DNA of 62,048 nt, the filler included. It is 3 parts of 3 records of this genome, joined end to end, with 100 filler letters (N's around TTAATTAATTAA, not from the genome) between each part and the next. Parts side by side here need not be neighbours in the genome. Positions count along the whole stretch, not along the records: positions 1 to 23,121 come from SRR2962707_3336; 2 more parts are not named here. One strand, written 5' to 3'. Positions 7,894-54,874 of the stretch are shown here, piece by piece. The position numbers and the translations under genes are program-made. Each line of letters begins with the position of its first letter. The first letter of the stretch is position 1. The notes beneath the pieces were generated by a model, which did no database searches, had not been told where the DNA came from, and saw only the letters and a list, made by a program, of their open reading frames with translations.

Positions 7894-9104
7894 CGGTCTA
7901 CTTCACCCATGACAAAATCCAATGATCCCACAATAGCAAAAAGGTCGGCAAGCATGCTTCCTTTACTTATCTCTGACAAAACAGACAAATTGCAAAAACT
8001 CGGGCCTCTTGATTTGCACCTAAACGGCTGATCGGATGTTCCATCAGCTCGGAAAAAGAACCCCAGTTCTCCTTTAGGATTTTCAGCTCGGACGTATAAG
8101 TCTTTGGCTTTCGGACGGATTTTCTTCGGAACCATGGCTCTGGGATCAAACTCCCTGGTTCGTTTATGATCTCCTAGCAGTTGCTCCACACATTGCTCAA
8201 TGATACGAATCGATTCCCAACATTCCTGATACCGAACCCAATTCCTATCCCAGCAATCCCCAACAGTTCCTACTTCTCCCTTTCCAACAGGGATATCAAA
8301 TTCCAGCTCGGGATAGACACTGTATCCATCCACTTTCCTCAAATCAAATTTCAATCCTGATGCTCTCAAGCATGGACCTGTAATCCCGGCATTGATGGCT
8401 AAATCACGATTCAATACACCAACGTTCGCGGTACGCTCTATGAAGATTTTATTGGAGATGAGCAGCTTTTCAGTATCTCTAAGTTTAGGCTTCAGGTAGT
8501 CAACAAATTCTTTGGCTCGCTCTTCAAAGCCTACCGGAAGATCATAAAACAATCCTCCTACCCAAATGTAGTTGTACAGCATTCTTGCACCACTTGCCCA
8601 CTCCAGCATCCTTAAAATATGCTCTCTGTCGCGCATCATCCATAGAAATGGAGTAACCGCACCGATATCCATACCATACGTTCCAATCGCCACAAAATGG
8701 GAAGCCAGTCGGTTTAGTTCTGCAACCAGTACCCGTATATACTCTACTCGTTTGGGAAGTTCCTGATCAATCCCTAGCATCTTCTCCACGCCCATCACAA
8801 ACGCCCATTCGTTGTTCATAGCCGCTACATAATCCATACGGTCAGTGTATGGGATTACTTGATTGTACGCCAACGATTCTGCATGTTTTTCAAAGCATCG
8901 GTGCAAATAACCAATATGTGGAACCACGTCAACTACAATCTCCCCATCAGTAACCACCTCCAAACGTAGTACCCCGTGGGTTGCCGGGTGTTGAGGGCCA
9001 ATATTGATGATCATCTCTTCTGTGCGAAGAGCACTTTCTCTATACTTTAGGGGCTCAGACCTATTTAATGGAGAATTGAGAATTGAAGATTGAGAATTTT
9101 CCAT
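7890..9104 (-). CDS. nuoD: NADH-quinone oxidoreductase subunit D
   Basis: GPQHPATHGVLRL, GYLHRCFEK, ENPKGE and C-terminal GSLDFVMGEVDR. Confidence 0.95.
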   Translation of the reverse strand: MENSQSSILNSPLNRSEPLKYRESALRTEEMIINIGPQHPATHGVLRLEVVTDGEIVVDVVPHIGYLHRCFEKHAESLAYNQVIPYTDRMDYVAAMNNEWAFVMGVEKMLGIDQELPKRVEYIRVLVAELNRLASHFVAIGTYGMDIGAVTPFLWMMRDREHILRMLEWASGARMLYNYIWVGGLFYDLPVGFEERAKEFVDYLKPKLRDTEKLLISNKIFIERTANVGVLNRDLAINAGITGPCLRASGLKFDLRKVDGYSVYPELEFDIPVGKGEVGTVGDCWDRNWVRYQECWESIRIIEQCVEQLLGDHKRTREFDPRAMVPKKIRPKAKDLYVRAENPKGELGFFFRADGTSDQPFRCKSRGPSFCNLSVLSEISKGSMLADLFAIVGSLDFVMGEVDR

Positions 9105-9117
9105 TTCAATTCATTTT
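9067..9117. repeat. Heptamer tandem array downstream of four-helix-bundle gene A, overlapping its stop and the nuoD 5' end
   Basis: Minus strand reads aattctc-aatcttc-aattctc-aattctc; imperfect inverted partner of 9457-9493. Confidence 0.8.
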
Positions 9118-9480
9118 GGATGATTTAATGATTGAAATAAGAATTCTCTTCAATTCAGTAGACATTTGAAGTAAATTCTCCATGCTACCATTCCCAAGAG
9201 AAGACTCATTAATTAGTCGCAACCAGTAATGAGTTTCATGTGCTTCTTTGTTCGCGATTGCAAGTTTGTGAACAAAATCTGCTTTTGATTCTGCTTGCTG
9301 TGCTTCCTCAGACAATGCCCCAATAGCCGTTGCTGATCTTAGCAATTGTTTTGACAGAACATATTCTTTCTGCTCTATCTGCAGGTATCTGGTGAATTGA
9401 ATAATCAGCAATGAAAATTCAAAACTCTTTTCCAACAGTGGATTTGGTTTCTGGTTAATTTTCAATTCTGCATTATCCAT
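9106..9480 (-). CDS. Four helix bundle protein (23S rRNA IVS protein / TIGR02436-like), copy A
   Basis: KSFEF...EYVLSKQLLRSATAIGA..EEAQQAESKADFVHKLAIANKEAHETHYWL. Lies between nuoC and nuoD. Start ATG 9480 or TTG 9486. Confidence 0.9.
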   Translation of the reverse strand: MDNAELKINQKPNPLLEKSFEFSLLIIQFTRYLQIEQKEYVLSKQLLRSATAIGALSEEAQQAESKADFVHKLAIANKEAHETHYWLRLINESSLGNGSMENLLQMSTELKRILISIIKSSKMN

Positions 9481-9493
9481 TATCAATTCATTA
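9457..9493. repeat. Heptamer tandem array at the 5' end of four-helix-bundle gene A
   Basis: Minus strand reads taa-tgaattg-ataatgg-ataatgc-agaattg-aaaatt directly from the nuoC stop. Confidence 0.8.
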
Positions 9494-13375: not shown

Positions 13376-14314
13376 ATGGATATTAAAAGCTTAGAGGATC
13401 GATTTAATGAGAAGATCGATGAGGACATCCGAATCGAACCGAAAGACTGGATGCCCGAGAATTATCGAAAGACATTGATTCGTCAGATCTCGCAGCATGC
13501 TCACTCTGAAATCGTTGGAATGCTTCCTGAAGCTAACTGGCTGACCAGGGCTCCAACATTGAGAAGAAAGGCAGCTGCACTGGCAAAAGTTCAGGATGAG
13601 GCCGGACATGGATTATATCTCTACAGTGCTTGCGAAACACTAGGGATAGATCGAGACACCTTGCTGGACGAACTACACACCGGAAAAGCAAAATATTCAA
13701 GCATTTTCAACTATCCAACCCTGACCTGGGCGGATATGGGTGCCATTGGATGGCTGGTTGATGGAGCAGCCATCATGAACCAGGTGCCGCTTTGCCGTAC
13801 CTCTTATGGTCCGTATGCGAGAGCCATGATTAGGGTATGTAAAGAAGAGTCTTTTCACCAACGACAAGGATATGAGATCATGCTTACCCTTTGCAAGGGA
13901 TCCGAAGAGCAGAAGAAGATGGCTCAAGATGCGTTGAACAGATGGTGGTGGCCATCGCTGATGATGTTTGGGCCTACCGACAAAGATTCCAAACACACCG
14001 AACAGTCGATGAGATGGAGAATTAAGCGATTCACCAATGATGAGTTACGTCAAAAATTCGTAGATGCTACTGTCCCACAAGCTGAACTCATAGGCTTAAA
14101 AGTTCCTGATAATGATTTGAAATGGAATGAAGAAAGAGGGCATTACGATTTTGGCGAAATCAACTGGGATGAATTCTTCAATGTGATCAAAGGAAATGGT
14201 CCATGCAACAAGCAGCGTCTGGATGCACGCAAAAAAGCATGGGATAATGGTGCATGGGTACGGGAAGCAGCTACCGCTCACGCAGAGAAAAAAGCAAAAC
14301 AAAAAGCAGCATAA
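13376..14314 (+). CDS. paaA: Phenylacetyl-CoA epoxidase subunit A
   Basis: [40 protein letters not shown]. Confidence 0.96.
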
Positions 14315-14324
14315 TTATACGAAT

Positions 14325-14606
14325 ATGAAAAACTGGCCACTCTGGGAAATTTTTATCCGAAGTAAAGCAGGCTTGAATCACAAGCACGTAGGAAGCCTTC
14401 ATGCTGCTGATGCAGAAATGGCTATTCAGAACGCAAGAGATGTTTACACCCGAAGAAATGAAGGAGTAAGCATATGGGTTGTAGAATCAAAATACCTGAC
14501 TGCCTCAGATCCTGATGATTCTGATCCATTGTATGAGCCGGCTAAAGACAAGGTATATCGTCACCCGACTTTTTACAATTTGCCAGATGAAGTGAAACAT
14601 ATGTAA
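14325..14606 (+). CDS. paaB: Phenylacetyl-CoA epoxidase subunit B
   Basis: WPLWEIFIRS..GL.HKHVGSLHA.D..MA..NARDVYTRRNEGVSIWVV; true start ATG 14325. Confidence 0.95.
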   Translation: MKNWPLWEIFIRSKAGLNHKHVGSLHAADAEMAIQNARDVYTRRNEGVSIWVVESKYLTASDPDDSDPLYEPAKDKVYRHPTFYNLPDEVKHM

Positions 14607-14640
14607 TTGGTGAATAGTGATTTGCTAACTAGTTAATTGG
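14604..14640. repeat. 7/8-nt tandem array upstream of four-helix-bundle gene B
   Basis: taattgg-tgaatag-tgatttg-ctaactag-ttaattgg, beginning at the paaB stop. Confidence 0.7.
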
Positions 14641-15021
14641 ATGTCTCAGAATTTGCAAGATCTGGAAGTTTGGAAAAAATCTAGAGAGTTTAGAAATGAA
14701 ATTTCGAAGCTATGCAAAACATTTCCAGCAGTTGAGAAATTTAGACTAATCGATCAGTTGATAAGGTCATCCAGATCTATTTCTGCCAATATTGCTGAAG
14801 GACATGGGAGGTTCCATTTTCAGGAAAACATTCAATTCTGCAGGCAAGCAAGAGGAAGTATTACAGAAACATTTGATCACTTAACAGTTGCAGTAGATGA
14901 GGGATTCGTAAAGGTTTTGGAGTTTGAGAGATTAAATCAGCAATTAGAAGTACTAGCCAAAATGCTTAATGGATATATCAATTATTTGCAAAAACGAAAA
15001 AATGAGGAACTAATCCACTGA
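14641..15021 (+). CDS. Four helix bundle protein, copy B
   Basis: DLEVWKKS...EKFRLIDQLIRSSRSISANIAEGHGR...ARGS..ET...KMLNGYI. Lies between paaB and paaC. Confidence 0.93.
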   Translation: MSQNLQDLEVWKKSREFRNEISKLCKTFPAVEKFRLIDQLIRSSRSISANIAEGHGRFHFQENIQFCRQARGSITETFDHLTVAVDEGFVKVLEFERLNQQLEVLAKMLNGYINYLQKRKNEELIH

Positions 15022-15047
15022 TAAACTAATGAACGATTTAACCAAGT
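15008..15047. repeat. 8-nt tandem array downstream of gene B (inverted relative to 14604-14640)
   Basis: aactaatc-cactgata-aactaatg-aacgattt-aaccaagt; contains gene B stop and paaC ATG. Confidence 0.7.
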
Positions 15048-15784
15048 ATAACTATACTCTGCAACAAGCTGATAACTGTCTAATTCTAGGCCAAAGACTG
15101 GCTGAATGGTGTGGGCACGGGCCTGTCCTGGAGCAGGACATTGCAATGACCAATATTGCGCTCGATCTAATCGGTCAGGCAAGGATGCTCTATCAATATG
15201 CTGCAGAAGTTCAAGGAGAAGGAAAATCAGAAGATGATGTGGCCTACCTGAGAGATGCATGGGGATATAAAAATGTACTCTTGGTAGAACAGCCTAATGG
15301 TGACTTTGCTCAGACCATACTCCGACAATTTTTATTCGACTCGCACAATTGTTATTTCTACGAGTCATTGATGAACAGCTCAGATGAAACCCTTGCTGCA
15401 ATAGCTGCTAAATCACATAAAGAAGCACTTTACCATCTTAAATGGAGTGGGGATTGGGTAATTCGATTAGGAGATGGTACTGAAGAAAGTAACCAGCGAA
15501 TAACAAATGCTCTTGAGGAATTATGGTCGTATGCAGGTGAGCTCACTATGCCAAGTGAAACGGACATCACGGCTCTCAAGGAAGGATATGGCATTAACCT
15601 GGAAGAAATAAAGACCAAAAGAGAGGCTAAAATTCAAGAAGTCTTTGATGAAGCAACCTTGAAAGTGCCGGAAGGTTCGTATTCACATAAAGGAGGTAAA
15701 GAAGGAAAGCACACAGAGCATCTTGGTTACATCCTGGCCGATCTTCAGTTCCTTCAAAGAGCTTATCCTGGTCTAGAGTGGTAA
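15029..15784 (+). CDS. paaC: Phenylacetyl-CoA epoxidase subunit C
   Basis: LILGQRLAEWCGHGPVLEQDIA..NIALDLIGQAR, G.HTEHLGYILA.LQFLQRAYPG..W. Confidence 0.95.
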   Translation: MNDLTKYNYTLQQADNCLILGQRLAEWCGHGPVLEQDIAMTNIALDLIGQARMLYQYAAEVQGEGKSEDDVAYLRDAWGYKNVLLVEQPNGDFAQTILRQFLFDSHNCYFYESLMNSSDETLAAIAAKSHKEALYHLKWSGDWVIRLGDGTEESNQRITNALEELWSYAGELTMPSETDITALKEGYGINLEEIKTKREAKIQEVFDEATLKVPEGSYSHKGGKEGKHTEHLGYILADLQFLQRAYPGLEW

Positions 15785-15785
15785 A

Positions 15786-16166
15786 ATGAATCTCAATCAG
15801 GTCACCGTTCCATCCCTAGATGTACCAAAATCAATTGATTTTTATAAAGCACTTGGCTTAACACTTATTGTCCATACACATGATAAGTATGCACGATTTG
15901 AATGCCCCAATGGTGATTCTACATTTTCAATACACTACGTTGAAAAGATAGCAGAAGGAGAAAAACCGGTGATCTACTTTGAATGCGATGATCTAGACAA
16001 ACAAGTCCAAAATCTCCTAGATCAGGGAATAGAATTCACTGAATTACCAAACGACAAGGGCTGGGCTTGGCGAGAAGCGCACTTGTTCGATCCTTACGGA
16101 AATCATCTTATCCTTTTCAAAGCCGGCAAGAACAGAAAAAATCCACCTTGGAGATTAAAGGAATAA
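15786..16166 (+). CDS. VOC (glyoxalase/bleomycin resistance) family protein
   Basis: SIDFY..LG, YFECDDLD, W.WREA.L.DP.GN. Confidence 0.88.
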   Translation: MNLNQVTVPSLDVPKSIDFYKALGLTLIVHTHDKYARFECPNGDSTFSIHYVEKIAEGEKPVIYFECDDLDKQVQNLLDQGIEFTELPNDKGWAWREAHLFDPYGNHLILFKAGKNRKNPPWRLKE

Positions 16167-16372
16167 TGGATTACTTGATTCAAACTGCCGAAATCAGAGC
16201 ATCAGAATCGAATAGAGGTCATGGAATTGGAACTTCGCTGATGACTTTTTGCTTAAATAAAGCAAAGGAGTTAGGTTATAAAAATATCATCTTGCAGGGA
16301 ACAGATGATGGTTTAGGTATTTACCAAAAGCATGGATTTAAAGAAGTCACCACCTATTTTGAATATGCATGA
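16166..16372 (+). CDS. Short (68 aa) GNAT acetyltransferase fragment
   Basis: ATG overlaps the VOC stop (TAATG). Acetyl-CoA motif RGHGIGT.L and IY.KHGF present; N-terminal half missing. Confidence 0.65.
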   Translation: MDYLIQTAEIRASESNRGHGIGTSLMTFCLNKAKELGYKNIILQGTDDGLGIYQKHGFKEVTTYFEYA

Positions 16373-16830
16373 CAATAGATAAACATCAAATCAATCAATT
16401 ATTAGAACAAGTTACGGATCCGGAAATTCCTGTTATTTCTATTCTTGATCTGGGAATCGTAAGGGACATAAAACTGAATGGAAAACAGGTTGAGGTGATC
16501 ATTACTCCCACTTATTCAGGCTGTCCGGCCATGCTTGAAATTGAAAAAAACATCAATAACATCCTCAAGCAAAATGGTATTGCAGAGGTGAAAGTAACAA
16601 CCGTCCTCTCCCCTGCCTGGACAACAGATTGGATGTCGCAAAAAGGCATGCACCAGTTGAAAGAATACGGCATTGCACCACCGAATCCAACAGCCCCTGA
16701 AGATGTCAATTGTCCCGCTTGTGGATCAGAAAACACCACTCTGGTTAGCCAATTTGGTTCAACAGCATGTAAGTCATTATACAAATGCAATGATTGTCTG
16801 GAGCCCTTTGATTATTTCAAATGTCATTAG
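16369..16830 (+). CDS. paaD: Phenylacetyl-CoA epoxidase subunit D
   Basis: V.DPEIPVISILDLGIVR, TPTYSGCPA, CPACGS...FGSTACK..Y.C..CLEPFDYFKCH. Confidence 0.95.
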   Translation: MTIDKHQINQLLEQVTDPEIPVISILDLGIVRDIKLNGKQVEVIITPTYSGCPAMLEIEKNINNILKQNGIAEVKVTTVLSPAWTTDWMSQKGMHQLKEYGIAPPNPTAPEDVNCPACGSENTTLVSQFGSTACKSLYKCNDCLEPFDYFKCH

Positions 16831-16867
16831 TTGGTAATTAGTAGATTAGTGAAATAGTTATTAGTTA
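16826..16867. repeat. 8-nt tandem array upstream of four-helix-bundle gene C
   Basis: attagtt-ggtaattagt-agattagt-gaaatagt-tattagt-ta; includes the paaD TAG stop. Confidence 0.8.
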
Positions 16868-17233
16868 ATGAAACTTGTCGATCTGGATATATGGAAAAAA
16901 TCAAGAGTATTTCGAAATGATATTAGCCAAATGGCGAGAGCATTACCGGAGGTAGAAAAATACAAGCTTGTCGACCAAATCATTAGGTCATCACGATCAG
17001 TAACAGCTAATATTGCAGAAGGTCATGGCAGATACCATTACCAAGAAAATATTCAATTTTGTAGAATAGCAAGAGGAAGCCTCATTGAGACTTTCGATCA
17101 CTTGACAGTTGCTTTAGATGAAAAGTATATCGTTCGGGAAAAATTTGATGAACTCTTTTTGAAATATGAAGAATTGATCAAAATGATCAACGGATATATT
17201 ACTTATCTAAACAAAAGGAAAGTTGATAGCTAA
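16868..17233 (+). CDS. Four helix bundle protein, copy C
   Basis: Same motifs as copy B (about 74 of 120 aligned residues identical by manual count). Lies between paaD and paaG. Confidence 0.93.
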   Translation: MKLVDLDIWKKSRVFRNDISQMARALPEVEKYKLVDQIIRSSRSVTANIAEGHGRYHYQENIQFCRIARGSLIETFDHLTVALDEKYIVREKFDELFLKYEELIKMINGYITYLNKRKVDS

Positions 17234-17266
17234 TACTTTTTAACTCATTAACCAATCTACTAAACC
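17228..17266. repeat. 8-nt tandem array downstream of gene C (inverted relative to 16826-16867)
   Basis: aactcatt-aaccaatc-tactaaac; accaatctactaa matches the reverse complement of upstream ttagtagattagt at 12 of 13 positions. Confidence 0.8.
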
Positions 17267-17269
17267 CCT

Positions 17270-18049
17270 ATGTCTAATACGCTCCAACTTTCCCAGAAAG
17301 ACAACTTAGGTATTATCACCTTCAATCGACCTGATGTATTCAACAGTTTCAATAAGGAACTGGCATTAGCTGTTCAGAAGGCATTAAATGACTACTCAAG
17401 CGATCCTTCCATTAGAGCAATCATGCTGACAGGAAATGGTAAGGCATTCTGTGCAGGTCAAGATTTGCAGGAAGCCATCGCCGATAATGGGTTAGAAATT
17501 GAGCAAATTGTGGAGGAGCATTACAATCCGATCATTCGACAGATCAGAAGCATTGAAAAGCCAATCGTTGCTGCCATCAATGGAGTTGCTGCTGGAGCGG
17601 GTGCCAATATTGCGCTTGCATGTGATGTGACCATTGCCACAGCATCTGCCTCATTCATTCAGGCATTTAGCAAAATCGGATTAGTCCCTGATAGTGGTGG
17701 TACTTTCACTTTGCCAAGAATCATCGGGTTCCAAAAAGCATCTGCTTTGATGATGCTAGGTGATAAAGTATCTGCAGAAGAGGCCGAGAAAATGGGAATG
17801 ATTTACAAAGTGGTTCCTGATGACCAATTTGCGGAAGAAACAGAAGCACTTGCATTGAAACTTGCGAACATGCCTACCAAGGGGTTAGCCTATACCAAGC
17901 ATTTGCTGAATCAGTCATTCACCAATGATCTTGATCAACAACTGGAGTTGGAAAAAGAGTGGCAATTCAAAGCCACTGAGACTTACGACTACAAAGAAGG
18001 AGTCAACGCCTTTATGGAGAAACGTAAACCGGAATTTAAAGGAGAATAA
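17270..18049 (+). CDS. paaG: Enoyl-CoA hydratase family, ring 1,2-epoxyphenylacetyl-CoA isomerase
   Basis: FCAGQDL, NGVAAGAGANIALACD, IGLVPDSGGT; paa context. Confidence 0.88.
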   Translation: MSNTLQLSQKDNLGIITFNRPDVFNSFNKELALAVQKALNDYSSDPSIRAIMLTGNGKAFCAGQDLQEAIADNGLEIEQIVEEHYNPIIRQIRSIEKPIVAAINGVAAGAGANIALACDVTIATASASFIQAFSKIGLVPDSGGTFTLPRIIGFQKASALMMLGDKVSAEEAEKMGMIYKVVPDDQFAEETEALALKLANMPTKGLAYTKHLLNQSFTNDLDQQLELEKEWQFKATETYDYKEGVNAFMEKRKPEFKGE

Positions 18050-19206
18050 TGCCAAAGCTAAGTGTAATAGGTGCCGGAACAATGGGCACAGGAATTGCCC
18101 AGGTCGCTGCGACGGCAGGATGGGATGTAGTCATCAACGACACCAATAGTGAGATACTGGAAAAATCATCCGATAGCCTCGTGAAGGTGATGTGCCGGTT
18201 GGTAGAGAAAGAAAAGATTGATCAAAAGACTGCTGATGGCATCTTAGGAAGAATAGACTTTACGGACGATCAGCAATACTTTGAAAACTCAGATCTGGTT
18301 ATTGAAGCAATTGTCGAAAACCTGGAAATCAAGAAAAAGGTATTTACCGCTGTAGAAGAAATCGTGAGAGAGGATACCATAATTGCTTCCAACACTTCTT
18401 CTCTATCCCTTGCATCAATTGGTTCCTCTTTGAAAAATCCTTCAAGGTTTGTGGGAATCCATTTTTTCAATCCGGCTCCATTGATGCCATTAGTTGAAAT
18501 CATTCCTGCGGTTCAAACAGAGAATTCTATTACAACCCAAGCCAAAGATTGGGTAGATAGCTGGGGGAAATTGACGGTTTTGGCAAAAGACACCCCGGGT
18601 TTCATTGTAAATCGTGTGGCTCGTCCATTTTATGGTGAGTCCCTACGAATCTATGAAGAGGGCATTGCCGATTTTACAACCATTGACTGGGCTATGAAAG
18701 AACTTGGTGGTTTTAGAATGGGCCCATTTGAGTTGATGGATTTCATCGGTAACGATATTAATTATACAGTTACAGAGACTGTGTTTCAATCCTTCTTTTA
18801 TGACCCTCGCTACCGACCTTCTTTTACTCAAAAACGAATGTCAGAAGCGGGATTTTTGGGGAGAAAATCAGGTAGAGGATATTACAATTATGCGGAGGGA
18901 GCTAGCAAACCTAAACCAACGGAGGATAAGGCGCTTGGTCAGCAAATTTTAGATCGTGTACTGGCTATGTTGATTAATGAAGCCGCTGATGCATTGTTTT
19001 TAAACATAGCAAGCAGAGATGATATCGATTTAGCCATGACCAAAGGTGTCAACTATCCAAAAGGATTACTGAAATGGGCTGACGAAAAAGGAATTGATCG
19101 GTGCGTTCAAAAAATGGATGAGCTATACGATGAATATCGTGAAGACCGGTATAGATGTAGTCCTCTTTTGAGAAGAATGAAAGAAAAAGGAAGCACTTTT
19201 TACTGA
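18049..19206 (+). CDS. paaH: 3-hydroxyacyl-CoA (3-hydroxyadipyl-CoA) dehydrogenase
   Basis: GAGTMGTG, SNTSS, HFFNP, PGFIVNR; duplicated C-terminal domain. Confidence 0.9.
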   Translation: MPKLSVIGAGTMGTGIAQVAATAGWDVVINDTNSEILEKSSDSLVKVMCRLVEKEKIDQKTADGILGRIDFTDDQQYFENSDLVIEAIVENLEIKKKVFTAVEEIVREDTIIASNTSSLSLASIGSSLKNPSRFVGIHFFNPAPLMPLVEIIPAVQTENSITTQAKDWVDSWGKLTVLAKDTPGFIVNRVARPFYGESLRIYEEGIADFTTIDWAMKELGGFRMGPFELMDFIGNDINYTVTETVFQSFFYDPRYRPSFTQKRMSEAGFLGRKSGRGYYNYAEGASKPKPTEDKALGQQILDRVLAMLINEAADALFLNIASRDDIDLAMTKGVNYPKGLLKWADEKGIDRCVQKMDELYDEYREDRYRCSPLLRRMKEKGSTFY

Positions 19207-19207
19207 T

Positions 19208-19621
19208 ATGACCAAATCCGAAAAAATAGTTGCTGAGATGATGGCAAAAGACACCTTTAGTCAGTGGCTTGGTGTTGAGGTATTGGAAGTTATGGAAGGT
19301 TTTGCCAAAATTAAAATGACGGTAAGGAATGAGATGCTAAACGGACACCTGGTAGCTCATGGTGGTATTTCATTTTCTCTTGCCGACAGTGCCTTTGCAT
19401 TTGCATCCAATTCTCATGGACAGAAAGCGGTTTCTATTGAAACATCAATCAATCATATCAAACCGGTTATTGAAGGAGATGAATTAATAGCCACCGCAGA
19501 AAAGGAAAGTATCTCTAAAAGCTTGGGACAGTACATCGTACGTGTTACCAGAGGAGATGAGTTGGTTGGGCTTTTCAAAGGAGTTGTTTTTCGTAAACAG
19601 GATACCTGGGATATTAGTTAA
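19208..19621 (+). CDS. paaI: Hotdog-fold phenylacetyl-CoA thioesterase
   Basis: MLNG...AHGG..FSLADSAFAFASNS. Confidence 0.9.
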   Translation: MTKSEKIVAEMMAKDTFSQWLGVEVLEVMEGFAKIKMTVRNEMLNGHLVAHGGISFSLADSAFAFASNSHGQKAVSIETSINHIKPVIEGDELIATAEKESISKSLGQYIVRVTRGDELVGLFKGVVFRKQDTWDIS

Positions 19622-19729
19622 AAGATTAGTTAAATAGTAAAATAGTTGATTAGTTAAGTATGAACGAATGTGCAATGGCATACAAGAGGTCCTTTCAACC
19701 AAATCACTGATCAACTAATAAGCCAAGAA
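19613..19729. mobile_element. Putative empty/deleted four-helix-bundle cassette (inverted 8-nt arrays around a 16-codon mini-ORF)
   Basis: Left agattagt-taaatagt-aaaatagt-tgattagt; right tcaaccaa-atcactga-tcaactaa-taagccaa; same repeat type as the flanks of copies B and C. Mobility is inferred. Confidence 0.6.
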
Positions 19730-20821
19730 ATGAACATACAAATACCTGATCATATTGCCGCCATAAGAAGTTACCAGCCTGGTAAGACCATACCTCAACT
19801 GCAAGAGGAGTACGGATGGGAAAATGTGGCCATCCTTTGGAATAATGAAAATACGCTTGGGTATTCTCCAAAATCAAAGCAGGCAGTCATAGATGCTTAC
19901 GAATCCATTAATTACTACCCCGATCCTGTAGGCAGAGATTTAAAAAAAGCACTAGCTGAAAAGTACGGAAAGAAAGAGTCAGAGATCTTTTTGGGGAATG
20001 GTTCAGAATCCGTTTTGATGCAAACTATTCGGGCTTTGTGCTCCGGAGATGATGAATTCCTTACCTCTGAAGGTGGATTCGTTATTATCTACAATTGGGC
20101 ACGAATAAATAATGTTCGTTGTGTATCCATGCCAATGACCGAAGGTTATGGATTTGATCTTGAAGCAATTAAAAGCAGGATCAACAGAAACACCAAGATC
20201 ATCTACCTCGCAAATGTGAACAATCCTACCGGCACGATGATCACCAGCCAGGAATTGGATAGTTTCATGCAATATGTGCCTGATCATGTTCTTGTGATTG
20301 TTGACGAAGCTTATTTCGAATATTCCGAAGCGCTACATCCTGATTTTCCAAATTCGCTAAAAATGGATTATCCAAATATTTTAACCCTCCGAACATTCAG
20401 TAAGGCTTATGGTATTGCAGGGGTGAGACTCGGATTTGGAATCGGACATGAAAAGGTCATTGATGCACTGAATAAGGTAAAGCTCACCTTCGAACCAACT
20501 GCACTTGCTCAAGCAGCCGGGATCGGAGCACTTCAGGATACGGAGTTTTTGAAAATGTCAATAGACAACAACACAGATCAACTAAGATATTTCTATCAGG
20601 AATTTGATCGTCTGGGCATCAGCTATGTTCCTTCTTATGCCAATTTTATTATGACCGTATGGAAAGATAAGGATGAGGTCATGAAGGTGTTCAATGCTTT
20701 GATGGAAAGAGGTGTTTTGGTTCGTCCTCTTTATGACCCCATTAGTCACTGCATCCGAATTTCGGTTGGTAAACCAGAGGAGAATCAACAGTGTATTTCT
20801 GCTTTGGAAGAAATCCTCTAA
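19730..20821 (+). CDS. hisC: Histidinol-phosphate/aromatic aminotransferase (class II PLP)
   Basis: NEN, YPD, GNGS, NNPTG, DEAYFEY, RTFSKAYGIAGVRLG; start ATG 19730. Confidence 0.8.
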   Translation: MNIQIPDHIAAIRSYQPGKTIPQLQEEYGWENVAILWNNENTLGYSPKSKQAVIDAYESINYYPDPVGRDLKKALAEKYGKKESEIFLGNGSESVLMQTIRALCSGDDEFLTSEGGFVIIYNWARINNVRCVSMPMTEGYGFDLEAIKSRINRNTKIIYLANVNNPTGTMITSQELDSFMQYVPDHVLVIVDEAYFEYSEALHPDFPNSLKMDYPNILTLRTFSKAYGIAGVRLGFGIGHEKVIDALNKVKLTFEPTALAQAAGIGALQDTEFLKMSIDNNTDQLRYFYQEFDRLGISYVPSYANFIMTVWKDKDEVMKVFNALMERGVLVRPLYDPISHCIRISVGKPEENQQCISALEEIL

Positions 20822-20836
20822 CGCACAATACAGAAA

Positions 20837-20876
20837 TAAAAAACCCTGCTACCGAATTCTCGGCACCAGGGTTTTC
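20837..20876. terminator. Probable bidirectional intrinsic terminator
   Basis: aaaaccctg...cagggtttt stem between convergent genes. Confidence 0.65.
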
Positions 20877-20904
20877 GAAAATAAGTTTCTTATTCAGGAA
20901 GTTC

Positions 20905-21840
20905 TTATTCCTCCTTGTATACTTTGATACCGTTTCTCTCGATGATGTCTTTCTTAAGAATCTTGAAGTCATCGATCTCAGGATTCATTGTAATCGCTTC
21001 TTCGATAGCAGTAAGTGCATCCACGATCAATCCATTCTCTTCGTAGAATGAAGCGTAGATAACTTTATTAAGAGGGCTACTTTCATCGATCTCAGCCTTT
21101 AGGCTATTAAGACCTTCAGCAAATTCTTCTGAATTTTCAGGTCTTTTGATGGCAATATCACCAGAAGAAACATCCATGTTTTCTTTTGCTTTAACATTGA
21201 TGATCCAAAGGTTCTCATCATTTTGCATTTGCTCAGAAGTAAGATCAAGGTTGATTGAGTTAGCACTCACTTCTTCCTTCATGATTTCTTCGTCAAAAAT
21301 GTTCTTAACGGTAACAACAAATGTGTTCACTTCCATGCCTTCAGGTGTATCCCAGCTTACGATGGCATTGTCACCAATCACATTTGCTTCCTCAGTAGGG
21401 ATTAGCAGTTGAATGGTCTCATCACCAGCAAGTGCTCTGGATACCGCTCCAGTTGCATTAAGCCTTTGTCTGTAGTTAGGCTGCTCTTTCTCATTCATCT
21501 TATCAGCGAGATATTGAGCATATCTTGTAGAAACACTAGAAGTCTTAGTACTAACCAACTTTTCAAGATCTTCGACCTTTTTGGTACCAGGAGTTCTTAC
21601 CTCCAACGTCTTGCCAGACTTGTGCATTAATCCAATATAAGCACCTTGAGAGGCAATCAATTCATCTCCGGAACTCAACGTTGCACCTGTTTTTAAAGCC
21701 ACAGCTGCTGTGGTTCCTTCTTTTTTAATCTTATTCTGTCCCTTGTTGGCTAATACCCTGAAGGTATATCCTTGCCCGTTGGCAAAACCAAAAGCGAAAA
21801 CGAATAATGTAGTGATAGCGATAGAAACATACTTTCTCAT
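20905..21840 (-). CDS. Secreted hypothetical protein, C-terminus reminiscent of DUF928
   Basis: Signal peptide; beta-rich N-terminus; GAVSR linker; helical tail YASFYEENGLIVDAL. Confidence 0.6.
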   Translation of the reverse strand: MRKYVSIAITTLFVFAFGFANGQGYTFRVLANKGQNKIKKEGTTAAVALKTGATLSSGDELIASQGAYIGLMHKSGKTLEVRTPGTKKVEDLEKLVSTKTSSVSTRYAQYLADKMNEKEQPNYRQRLNATGAVSRALAGDETIQLLIPTEEANVIGDNAIVSWDTPEGMEVNTFVVTVKNIFDEEIMKEEVSANSINLDLTSEQMQNDENLWIINVKAKENMDVSSGDIAIKRPENSEEFAEGLNSLKAEIDESSPLNKVIYASFYEENGLIVDALTAIEEAITMNPEIDDFKILKKDIIERNGIKVYKEE

Positions 21841-23121: not shown

Positions 23122-23221
23122 NNNNNNNNNNNNNNNNNNNNNNNNNNNNNNNNNNNNNNNNNNNNTTAATTAATTAANNNNNNNNNNNNNNNNNNNNNNN
23201 NNNNNNNNNNNNNNNNNNNNN
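23122..23221. other. Artificial contig linker
   Basis: N44-TTAATTAATTAA-N44 (stops in all six frames); abrupt GC shift and genes truncated on both sides. Confidence 0.98.
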
Positions 23222-54774: not shown

Positions 54775-54874
54775 NNNNNNNNNNNNNNNNNNNNNNNNNN
54801 NNNNNNNNNNNNNNNNNNTTAATTAATTAANNNNNNNNNNNNNNNNNNNNNNNNNNNNNNNNNNNNNNNNNNNN
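54775..54874. other. Artificial contig linker
   Basis: N44-TTAATTAATTAA-N44. Confidence 0.98.

Follow-up and report, generated by a model that had tools for sequence, protein, structure and literature searches.

Intervening sequences (IVSs) of 23S rRNA that carry an S23p open reading frame (ORF) have been known for decades. The encoded four-helix-bundle protein (PF05635/TIGR02436, here called IVP) was first found in these sequences and is related to Avd, the accessory protein of diversity-generating retroelements. To our knowledge, the origin and mobility of S23p-ORF IVSs and the role of their ORF are unexplained. In enterobacteria, repetitive extragenic palindromic (REP) sequences and bacterial interspersed mosaic elements (BIMEs) consist of ~35-nt conserved units in hundreds of copies, form imperfect palindromes within operons and are thought to affect mRNA stability. 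Here we analyze a 62,048-nucleotide stretch of DNA (the window), in whose first contig (positions 1-23121) the spacer between paaI and a hisC-type aminotransferase gene of a phenylacetate (paa) operon holds two facing repeat arrays. The closest known system to this focal element is the ORF-bearing 23S rRNA IVS (Coxiella burnetii, helix 45; Leptospira), which encodes S23p/PF05635. The Coxiella IVS has a 28-bp terminal stem, is excised by RNase III and carries variable-number tandem heptamers directly 5' of the S23p ATG (PMC4990558).

What is the origin of an array pair that encloses no gene? We consider it reasonably probable that the focal element is a cargo-less ('solo hairpin') member of an intercistronic cassette family and that it arose, most likely, by deletion of its cargo. 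A full cassette of this family has a left array whose 7-8-nt units each include a stop triplet, a PF05635/TIGR02436 gene right after it and a reverse-complement right array. Such a cassette has the build of the ORF-bearing 23S rRNA IVSs, set between co-transcribed protein genes. The focal copy would have lost its cargo from a cassette like copies B and C, two loaded cassettes of the same operon, or would result from turnover at a repeatedly colonised junction, and it would now be carried within the paa-hisC transcript. The left array gives paaI its stop and closes all three frames, the right array reaches the hisC start region, and the two arrays can pair as an imperfect stem of about 20-25 bp.

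The array pair between paaI and hisC

The paaI-hisC spacer is 108 nt long (19622-19729) and consists of two 8-base repeat arrays that mirror each other and enclose no gene. The left array (19613-19659, plus strand), supported by Tandem Repeats Finder and pattern scans, contains about five units of period 8 (ATTAGTTA / AAATAGTA / AAATAGTT / GATTAGTT). Tandem Repeats Finder reports 3.9 copies of this period at 19627-19657, with 78% matches and the consensus TAGTTAAA. The first unit, ATTAGTTAA (19613-19621), coincides with the final three codons of paaI including the stop (ATT AGT TAA) and recurs exactly at 19625-19633. Ten stop triplets, distributed 4/3/3 over the forward frames, close all three frames in the left array. 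The right array (TCAACCAA / ATCACTGA / TCAACTAA / TAAGCCA), at 19695-19725 on the plus strand, supported by the inverted-repeat search and duplex statistics, is of the reverse-complement type of the left array and, when read on the minus strand, also has stops in all three frames. The core right arm ends 10 nt 5' of the hisC ATG. The best inverted pair joins 19625-19649 with 19695-19719 over 25 nt at 72% complementarity, leaving 45 nt between the arms. An earlier description of this spacer, made from the letters alone (the sequence-only reading), had claimed both arrays, and all of the features that it described were found where it had placed them.

The plus-strand loop between the arrays (19660-19694; a gap of 36 nt by the array limits of the sequence-only reading) contains no four-helix-bundle remnant detectable by local alignment to IVP genes. 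The period-8 array ends 2 nt before an ATG at 19660, which opens a mini-ORF of 16 codons on the plus strand (19660-19710; MNECAMAYKRSFQPNH). The mini-ORF stops in CACTGA, and the stop of copy B likewise lies in CACTGA (15016-15021). The extent and the stop of this mini-ORF had been read correctly, but its candidacy as a gene was rejected and that as an IVP remnant is not supported: it is not a conserved gene, the orthologous empty spacers of L006, L007 and L008 hold a different small ORF or none, and CACTGA is simply a common right-arm unit.

The arrays exceed what base composition provides. The motif TTAGTTRA occurs seven times in the window against 1.63 expected, a count reached by none of 100 shuffles, and four of the seven occurrences lie inside the focal element. 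The pattern TAGT-N3-5-TAGT-N3-5-TAGT has four matches in 62 kb (0.00 expected), all of them in the focal left array and the left arm of copy C. The arm-to-arm duplex has an energy of -16.1 kcal/mol on the plus strand (z -2.5, reached by 5/500 dinucleotide shuffles) and of -24.8 kcal/mol on the minus strand (z -5.1, reached by 0/500). Folds of the whole hairpin are weaker evidence than the arm duplex, with z -1.69 on the plus strand (9/200 shuffles) and z -2.51 on the minus strand (2/200).

Searches for other known signals were negative within their ranges. Rfam covariance models give no match in the focal element at E <= 1, and two weak matches in 14000-21000 lie elsewhere. Terminator-like sites (a G+C-rich stem followed by a T run) number zero in 19200-20000, and no sigma-70-type promoter-like site is found in the focal element by a scan that does not cover Bacteroidota-type promoters. 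No flanking direct repeat of the kind left by target-site duplication is evident around the element. Duplication of the hisC 5' end within the element was considered as a further candidate and rejected, given that the 14-nt similarity between the right arm and hisC codons 4-8 is not significant in five of five genomes (best case, 31/500 shuffles).

Both flanking genes are on the plus strand. The upstream gene paaI (19208-19621), encoding hydroxyphenylacetyl-CoA thioesterase, matches Pfam 4HBT at 2.4e-12 and NCBIfam TIGR02286 with 118.3 bits versus a cut-off of 118.9. The hisC-type aminotransferase gene (19730-20821), the final gene of the operon, matches TIGR01141 with 286.3 bits versus a cut-off of 276.55 and Pfam Aminotran_1_2 at 8e-54. 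Directly 3' of hisC, between convergent genes, a G+C-rich hairpin followed by a T run at 20822-20904 is probably the terminator of the paa-hisC operon.

Loaded cassettes on the contig and in relatives

Three loaded PF05635/TIGR02436 cassettes are present within the 23-kb Ekhidna-like contig. Copy B (14604-15028, plus strand; IVP ORF 14641-15021; PF05635 1.3e-32, TIGR02436 1.5e-31) lies between paaB and paaC, and copy C (16828-17269, plus strand; IVP ORF 16868-17233; PF05635 5.7e-34) lies between paaD and paaG. The gene order of the operon is paaE, paaA, paaB, copy B, paaC, glyoxalase, GNAT fragment, paaD, copy C, paaG, paaH, paaI, the focal spacer and the hisC-type aminotransferase. Copies B and C are 64% identical and have TTAGT-type arms in common. 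The claim that the focal arrays are of the same type as those of copies B and C is borne out, with left units TTAGT/ATAGT and right units ACTAA/CACTGA in each case. The focal left arm is closest to the left arm of copy C (score 22 versus 17-18 for the orthologous empties), a likeness that is suggestive only in such low-complexity sequence. The minimum-free-energy structure predicted for the entire copy C cassette encloses the ORF within a stem of its terminal arms (z -2.13, 3/100 shuffles). Copy A (9065-9493, minus strand; IVP ORF 9106-9486; PF05635 2e-20) is bounded by heptamer arms of a different unit (GAATTGA / GAGAATT) and sits directly after the stop of the upstream minus-strand gene.

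The same architecture recurs among relatives of the window genome, to which the genome-wide scans were confined (Ekhidna-related DNA only). PF05635 has 23 hits in three complete Ekhidna genomes, and nearly every such gene has on its 5' side, right up to the ATG, an array in which stop triplets recur at 7-8-nt intervals, and on its 3' side the complementary array. The repeat unit varies by cassette (GTAGAAAG, GTTAGCN, TTAGACN, TAGTCNA and others), and the arms within one cassette match. Across 22 scored cassettes, among them copies from the window and from paa loci, the mean duplex energy is -18.7 kcal/mol for cognate arms versus -13.8 kcal/mol for non-cognate ones; the observed sum was reached by none of 10,000 permutations, and the cognate right arm ranks first in 10 of the 22 cassettes. 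Because units differ between cassettes while cognate arms match, the constraint acts on pairing and not on sequence. The gene is wedged between two same-strand ORFs in 19 of these cassettes. The IVP subfamily that resembles copies B and C is found in paa operons only; all seven of its copies have TTAGT-type arms, and the more distant IVPs of genomes G002-G004 have other units. These comparisons use spacer-based duplex tests, which replaced an autocorrelation array detector that did not pick up the focal right arm or the arms of copies B and C. MAFFT alignments of the low-complexity spacers are unreliable and served for rough identity only, and L005 and L006 were compared by exact shared words.

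The window as a whole is composite. Linkers (44 N, TTAATTAATTAA, 44 N) at 23122-23221 and 54775-54874 separate three contigs with G+C contents of 40%, 63% and about 50%. The second contig is 98-100% identical to genome G001, and the aminotransferase of the first contig is 81-90% identical to homologues in Ekhidna metagenome-assembled genomes (Reichenbachiellaceae, Bacteroidota). Contig composition and identities show that the stretch is a mixed bin or a concatenation. The unrelated G001 (63% G+C) has a single PF05635 gene (L002, G001:C4:110317-113613; 1501-1797 of the locus, minus strand), which is flanked by A+T-rich inverted arrays (GAATAGTTAACAG... / ...CTATTCACTGTTCAC...). From their translations, we take its neighbours to be glyA and nrdR.

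Origin and persistence of the empty pair

The junction downstream of paaI is occupied in different ways among relatives. Where hisC follows, the window, L006, L007 and L008 have empty array pairs, L110 has weak or degenerate arrays, and L004, L009 and L010 have none. The array pair of L005 (5714-6000) holds an insert of ~200 nt with no ORF longer than 30 codons. A terminal inverted repeat of its own (AGCATCCGA... / ...TCGGATGCT) suggests that this insert may be another small element lodged within the hairpin. Where a thiolase gene follows, L111 has an empty pair, and L112 and L113 have a 15-nt junction with no arrays. The sequence-only reading had proposed looking in relatives for a gene at this site, and L114 and L115 supply one: directly after the paaI stop, their arrays hold a frameshifted IVP gene that is 66% identical to copy C over its first part. 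In L107-L109 (L107 1311-1900), a 149-aa ORF without a Pfam match lies between same-type arrays; this ORF is intact in L107 and stop-interrupted in L108, and its N-terminal half is hydrophobic by eye. The suggestion that the arrays are separable from the four-helix-bundle ORF is upheld both by the same-type empty pairs at several paa junctions and by the different ORF of L107-L109.

Deletion of cargo is visible at a neighbouring junction. At paaA|paaB, the IVP gene of L006 lacks its first 53 codons and the left arm, and in L005 about 30 nt from the 3' end of the IVP coding sequence remain within the 'empty' pair, followed by the right arm; both the remnant and the arm align with the truncated IVP of L006. 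This comparison indicates that deletion scars do arise. Moreover, the paa junctions display a decay series that runs from intact (window copies B and C; L008) through frameshifted (L007, L115) and truncated (L006) to empty and tight. The proposal of a deletion scar thus holds at paaA|paaB but is not shown for the focal copy itself, whose loop has no similarity to IVP genes and whose past gene content is presumed from its relatives.

Several observations weigh against a deletion origin or against a functional stem in the transcript. No relative with hisC downstream has a gene at the paaI|hisC junction, and the loaded junction of L114 and L115, with its downstream thiolase gene, is orthologous on the paaI side only. 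Local alignment of the focal loop to seven IVP genes yields a score of 17 against a shuffle mean of 17.9 (341/500 shuffles score at least as high), that is, no remnant. Cognate pairing is no better than average in 9 of the 22 scored cassettes, partly because the ends of truncated copies were poorly delimited. At the paaI|hisC junction, swapping arms among the orthologous empties gives pairing as good as that of the cognate arms (335 and 240 of 720 permutations reach the observed sum), and the lack of a compensatory signal there follows from all of the arms being of one sequence type. The stem of the mRNA strand is weak, with a 12-bp core and the low whole-fold z score given above. In addition, 30 arm mismatches read as A.C on the sense strand, and hence as G.U on the antisense strand, versus 11 in the opposite sense (binomial p 0.004), counted over six empties that are related and not independent. 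Sense-strand A.C mismatches of this kind fit badly with a sense-transcript stem of the RNase III type.

Arrays of the focal type are rare outside the paa locus. As a random sample, 400 kb of the complete relative G003 was taken as 20 evenly spaced stretches of 20 kb, which contain 118 spacers of 50-260 nt; same-strand genes flank 74 of these spacers. Arm pairing at z <= -3 is found in 12 of 28 paa-operon spacers from the fetched loci versus 6 of the 74 same-strand G003 spacers (Fisher p = 1.4e-4), and 3 of these 12 paa spacers belong to another palindromic repeat family. On inspection, the six G003 spacers are terminators, other repeat families or a conserved single-stem hairpin. The rarity of such arrays at random intergenic sites in the relatives' genomes agrees with the link to four-helix-bundle loci that the sequence-only reading had drawn. 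The TAGT-triple pattern occurs 4, 9, 4, 7 and 7 times in five Ekhidna genomes of 3.9-4.7 Mb, where the reversed control pattern occurs 43-61 times. In G006, three of the seven arrays are within the paa locus. The 5-12-fold rarity of the pattern relative to its reversed control in G002-G006 fits a general avoidance of TAG-containing words, so the arrays stand out more.

Other hairpins were encountered in the same survey. The only array-like hit in the G003 sample, L152 8870-8950, was rejected as a different thing, a single 13-bp stem with a loop conserved in four genomes. Together with its orthologues in L153, L155 and L156, this hairpin lies between ABC-type ATPase and membrane-protein genes, and in one genome its stem is changed on both sides (GGTTAGATAGGTT/AACCTATCTAACC versus AAAGTTGGTTG/CAACCTTT) with the loop conserved; we take it for a probable cis-regulatory RNA rather than an array cassette. 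Within the paa operons, other palindromic repeats occupy the paaB|paaC spacers of L004 (251-345) and L009 (1426-1516) and the paaH|paaI spacers of L004, L005, L007 and L009, with example families GTCATTTCGAAGGAGG...CGAAATGAC and GATGCTTCCTTCGTCAGCATGACA...GCATGTCATTCTGAGC...GCGAAGAATCTC. Several kinds of hairpin element thus occupy the same paa junctions.

The strongest of the rival explanations, although an unlikely one, reverses the order of events. In this explanation, the array pair came first as a docking site for four-helix-bundle genes or other cargo, for example via recombination between similar arms, and the focal copy was never loaded. The non-IVP ORF within the arrays of L107-L109, the insert of L005, the absence of an IVP remnant from the focal loop and the interchangeable type of all paa-operon arms are consistent with such a landing pad, as is the state of the paaI|hisC junction, which is empty in five of nine hisC-downstream genomes and loaded in none. 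However, the L005/L006 comparison demonstrates that an empty pair can come from deletion, and the decay series points in the same direction. Furthermore, arm type tracks IVP subfamily, and arrays are rare where no IVP cassettes are nearby.

The pair has persisted over a long time. Four-fold degenerate sites of paaH are only 24-37% identical among the window, L006, L007 and L008, which amounts to saturation, and yet an array pair is retained between paaI and hisC in each of the four. Exact words are shared among the orthologous spacers, namely a 17-mer of the left arm in L005 and L006, a 14-mer of the right arm in L005 and L008 and an 11-mer in L007 and L008. A neutral scar should have been erased by now, and thus we infer that the pair is kept by selection (for instance for a hairpin that serves mRNA processing or stability), by repair between the arms through template switching or conversion, or by repeated re-seeding. 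Does this persistence reflect a host function? In a second rival explanation, which we regard as slightly less likely still than the landing pad, the element would be a selected, REP-like intercistronic stem that tunes paaI and hisC through mRNA processing, stability or translational coupling and that shares only its repeat style with the IVP cassettes. Its maintenance at the same junction in at least five lineages with saturated sites and shared words of 11-17 nt would suit a regulatory role, as would its position within an operon with no promoter-like or terminator-like site and the supply by the left arm of the paaI stop and of stops in all frames. Nevertheless, the arrays are absent from L004, L009 and L010. 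In the PaaH tree, the array-less L004 and L009 are nested with the array-bearing L005 (98/94 support), beside L006, so the element is dispensable; two losses are likelier than two gains given the 17-mer common to L005 and L006. IVP genes 2.4 and 4.6 kb upstream are flanked by arms of this same type, the stem is weaker on the mRNA strand than on the opposite one, and no Rfam family matches. Both this explanation and the landing pad are compatible with a deletion scar and do not exclude it.

The strand asymmetry raises a more speculative idea. The antisense-strand stem is the stronger one in five of six empties. Among loaded cassettes, the antisense strand gives the more stable duplex in 16 of 22 cases (p 0.05), and the A.C bias is weak (60 versus 46, p 0.21). 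The strand bias may come from selection for an A/C-rich unstructured leader before the hisC start; the Bacteroidota, as far as is known, are largely without Shine-Dalgarno pairing. Alternatively, it may come from a hairpin that matters on the bottom strand. It is conceivable, at rather long odds, that the arrays and not the gene are the self-maintaining unit, as a bottom-strand hairpin (G.T-tolerant single-stranded DNA or antisense RNA) that gains and loses cargo and whose complementarity is kept by template switching between arms. Candidate cargo would then be the IVP genes, the 149-aa ORF of L107 and the 200-nt insert of L005, and rRNA IVSs would represent one particular landing place for cassettes of a more general system, a loose parallel to integron attC hairpins.

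Finally, a chance low-complexity spacer without relation to the cassettes, to which the A+T-rich region and the modest plus-strand fold might point, is already disfavoured and very improbable in view of the excess of both patterns over shuffles, the period-8 array found by Tandem Repeats Finder, the minus-strand duplex and the same-type arrays at the orthologous junction of four other genomes. We return to cargo loss from an intercistronic cassette as the preferred explanation, in which the stem would form in vivo as RNA or as single-stranded DNA.

Comparison with known systems

Within one operon of about a dozen related genomes, such cassettes are seen outside rRNA at all stages, that is, loaded, frameshifted, truncated, empty, re-filled and absent. 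The empty form indicates that the arms are able to survive loss of the gene and that, at a single junction, they remain well past the randomisation of neutral sites. The locus thus provides a tractable system for the role of the arms, in RNA processing or in maintenance at the DNA level, and for the contribution of the four-helix-bundle protein. Cultured members of Ekhidna exist, and the paa operon should be inducible. For annotation, the locus is a reminder that such spacers are easily taken for junk or for small ORFs.

Gene-less derivatives with inverted ends and intercistronic palindromes are known from two other classes of element. As in a miniature inverted-repeat transposable element (MITE), the focal element would be a gene-less derivative that has both inverted ends of a gene-carrying parent, with a visible decay series. 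No target-site duplication is evident. Unlike in a MITE, the sequence of the ends varies across the family, the parent has no recognised transposase, and the copies are few and not near-identical. The focal element resembles REP/BIME sequences in being a non-coding imperfect palindrome between operon genes that is linked to a protein-coding parent element. However, arrays of the focal (TAGT) type number 4-9 per genome, vary in unit sequence and are built of tandem 7-8-nt units, and the associated gene encodes a four-helix-bundle protein in place of the RAYT (TnpA-REP) transposase of REP sequences. The focal element has the defining features of neither a MITE nor a REP sequence.

The likeness to 23S rRNA IVSs is closer. 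Three features are common to the Coxiella element (PMC4990558) and copies A-C: a terminal inverted-repeat stem around a four-helix-bundle ORF, tandem short repeats right 5' of the ORF start and an ORF prone to decay. In the literature searched, outside which most subscription journals and the older Leptospira and Salmonella IVS papers fall, repeat-array hairpins around PF05635 genes outside rRNA were not found. The focal element itself has complementary termini (25-nt arms, 72% complementary) and tandem short repeats in the 5' arm (period 8, 3.9 copies). It differs from an IVS in its location between protein genes of an operon and not in an rRNA helix (25 or 45), and no rRNA match is present in 14000-21000. 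Its loop (36-45 nt) has no PF05635 ORF, in contrast to copies A, B and C, and its imperfect arms differ from the near-perfect 28-bp Coxiella stem. Given its location outside rRNA and its lack of an ORF, the focal element is not a member of the IVS class and is best described as an operon-resident, cargo-less variant of the IVS design.

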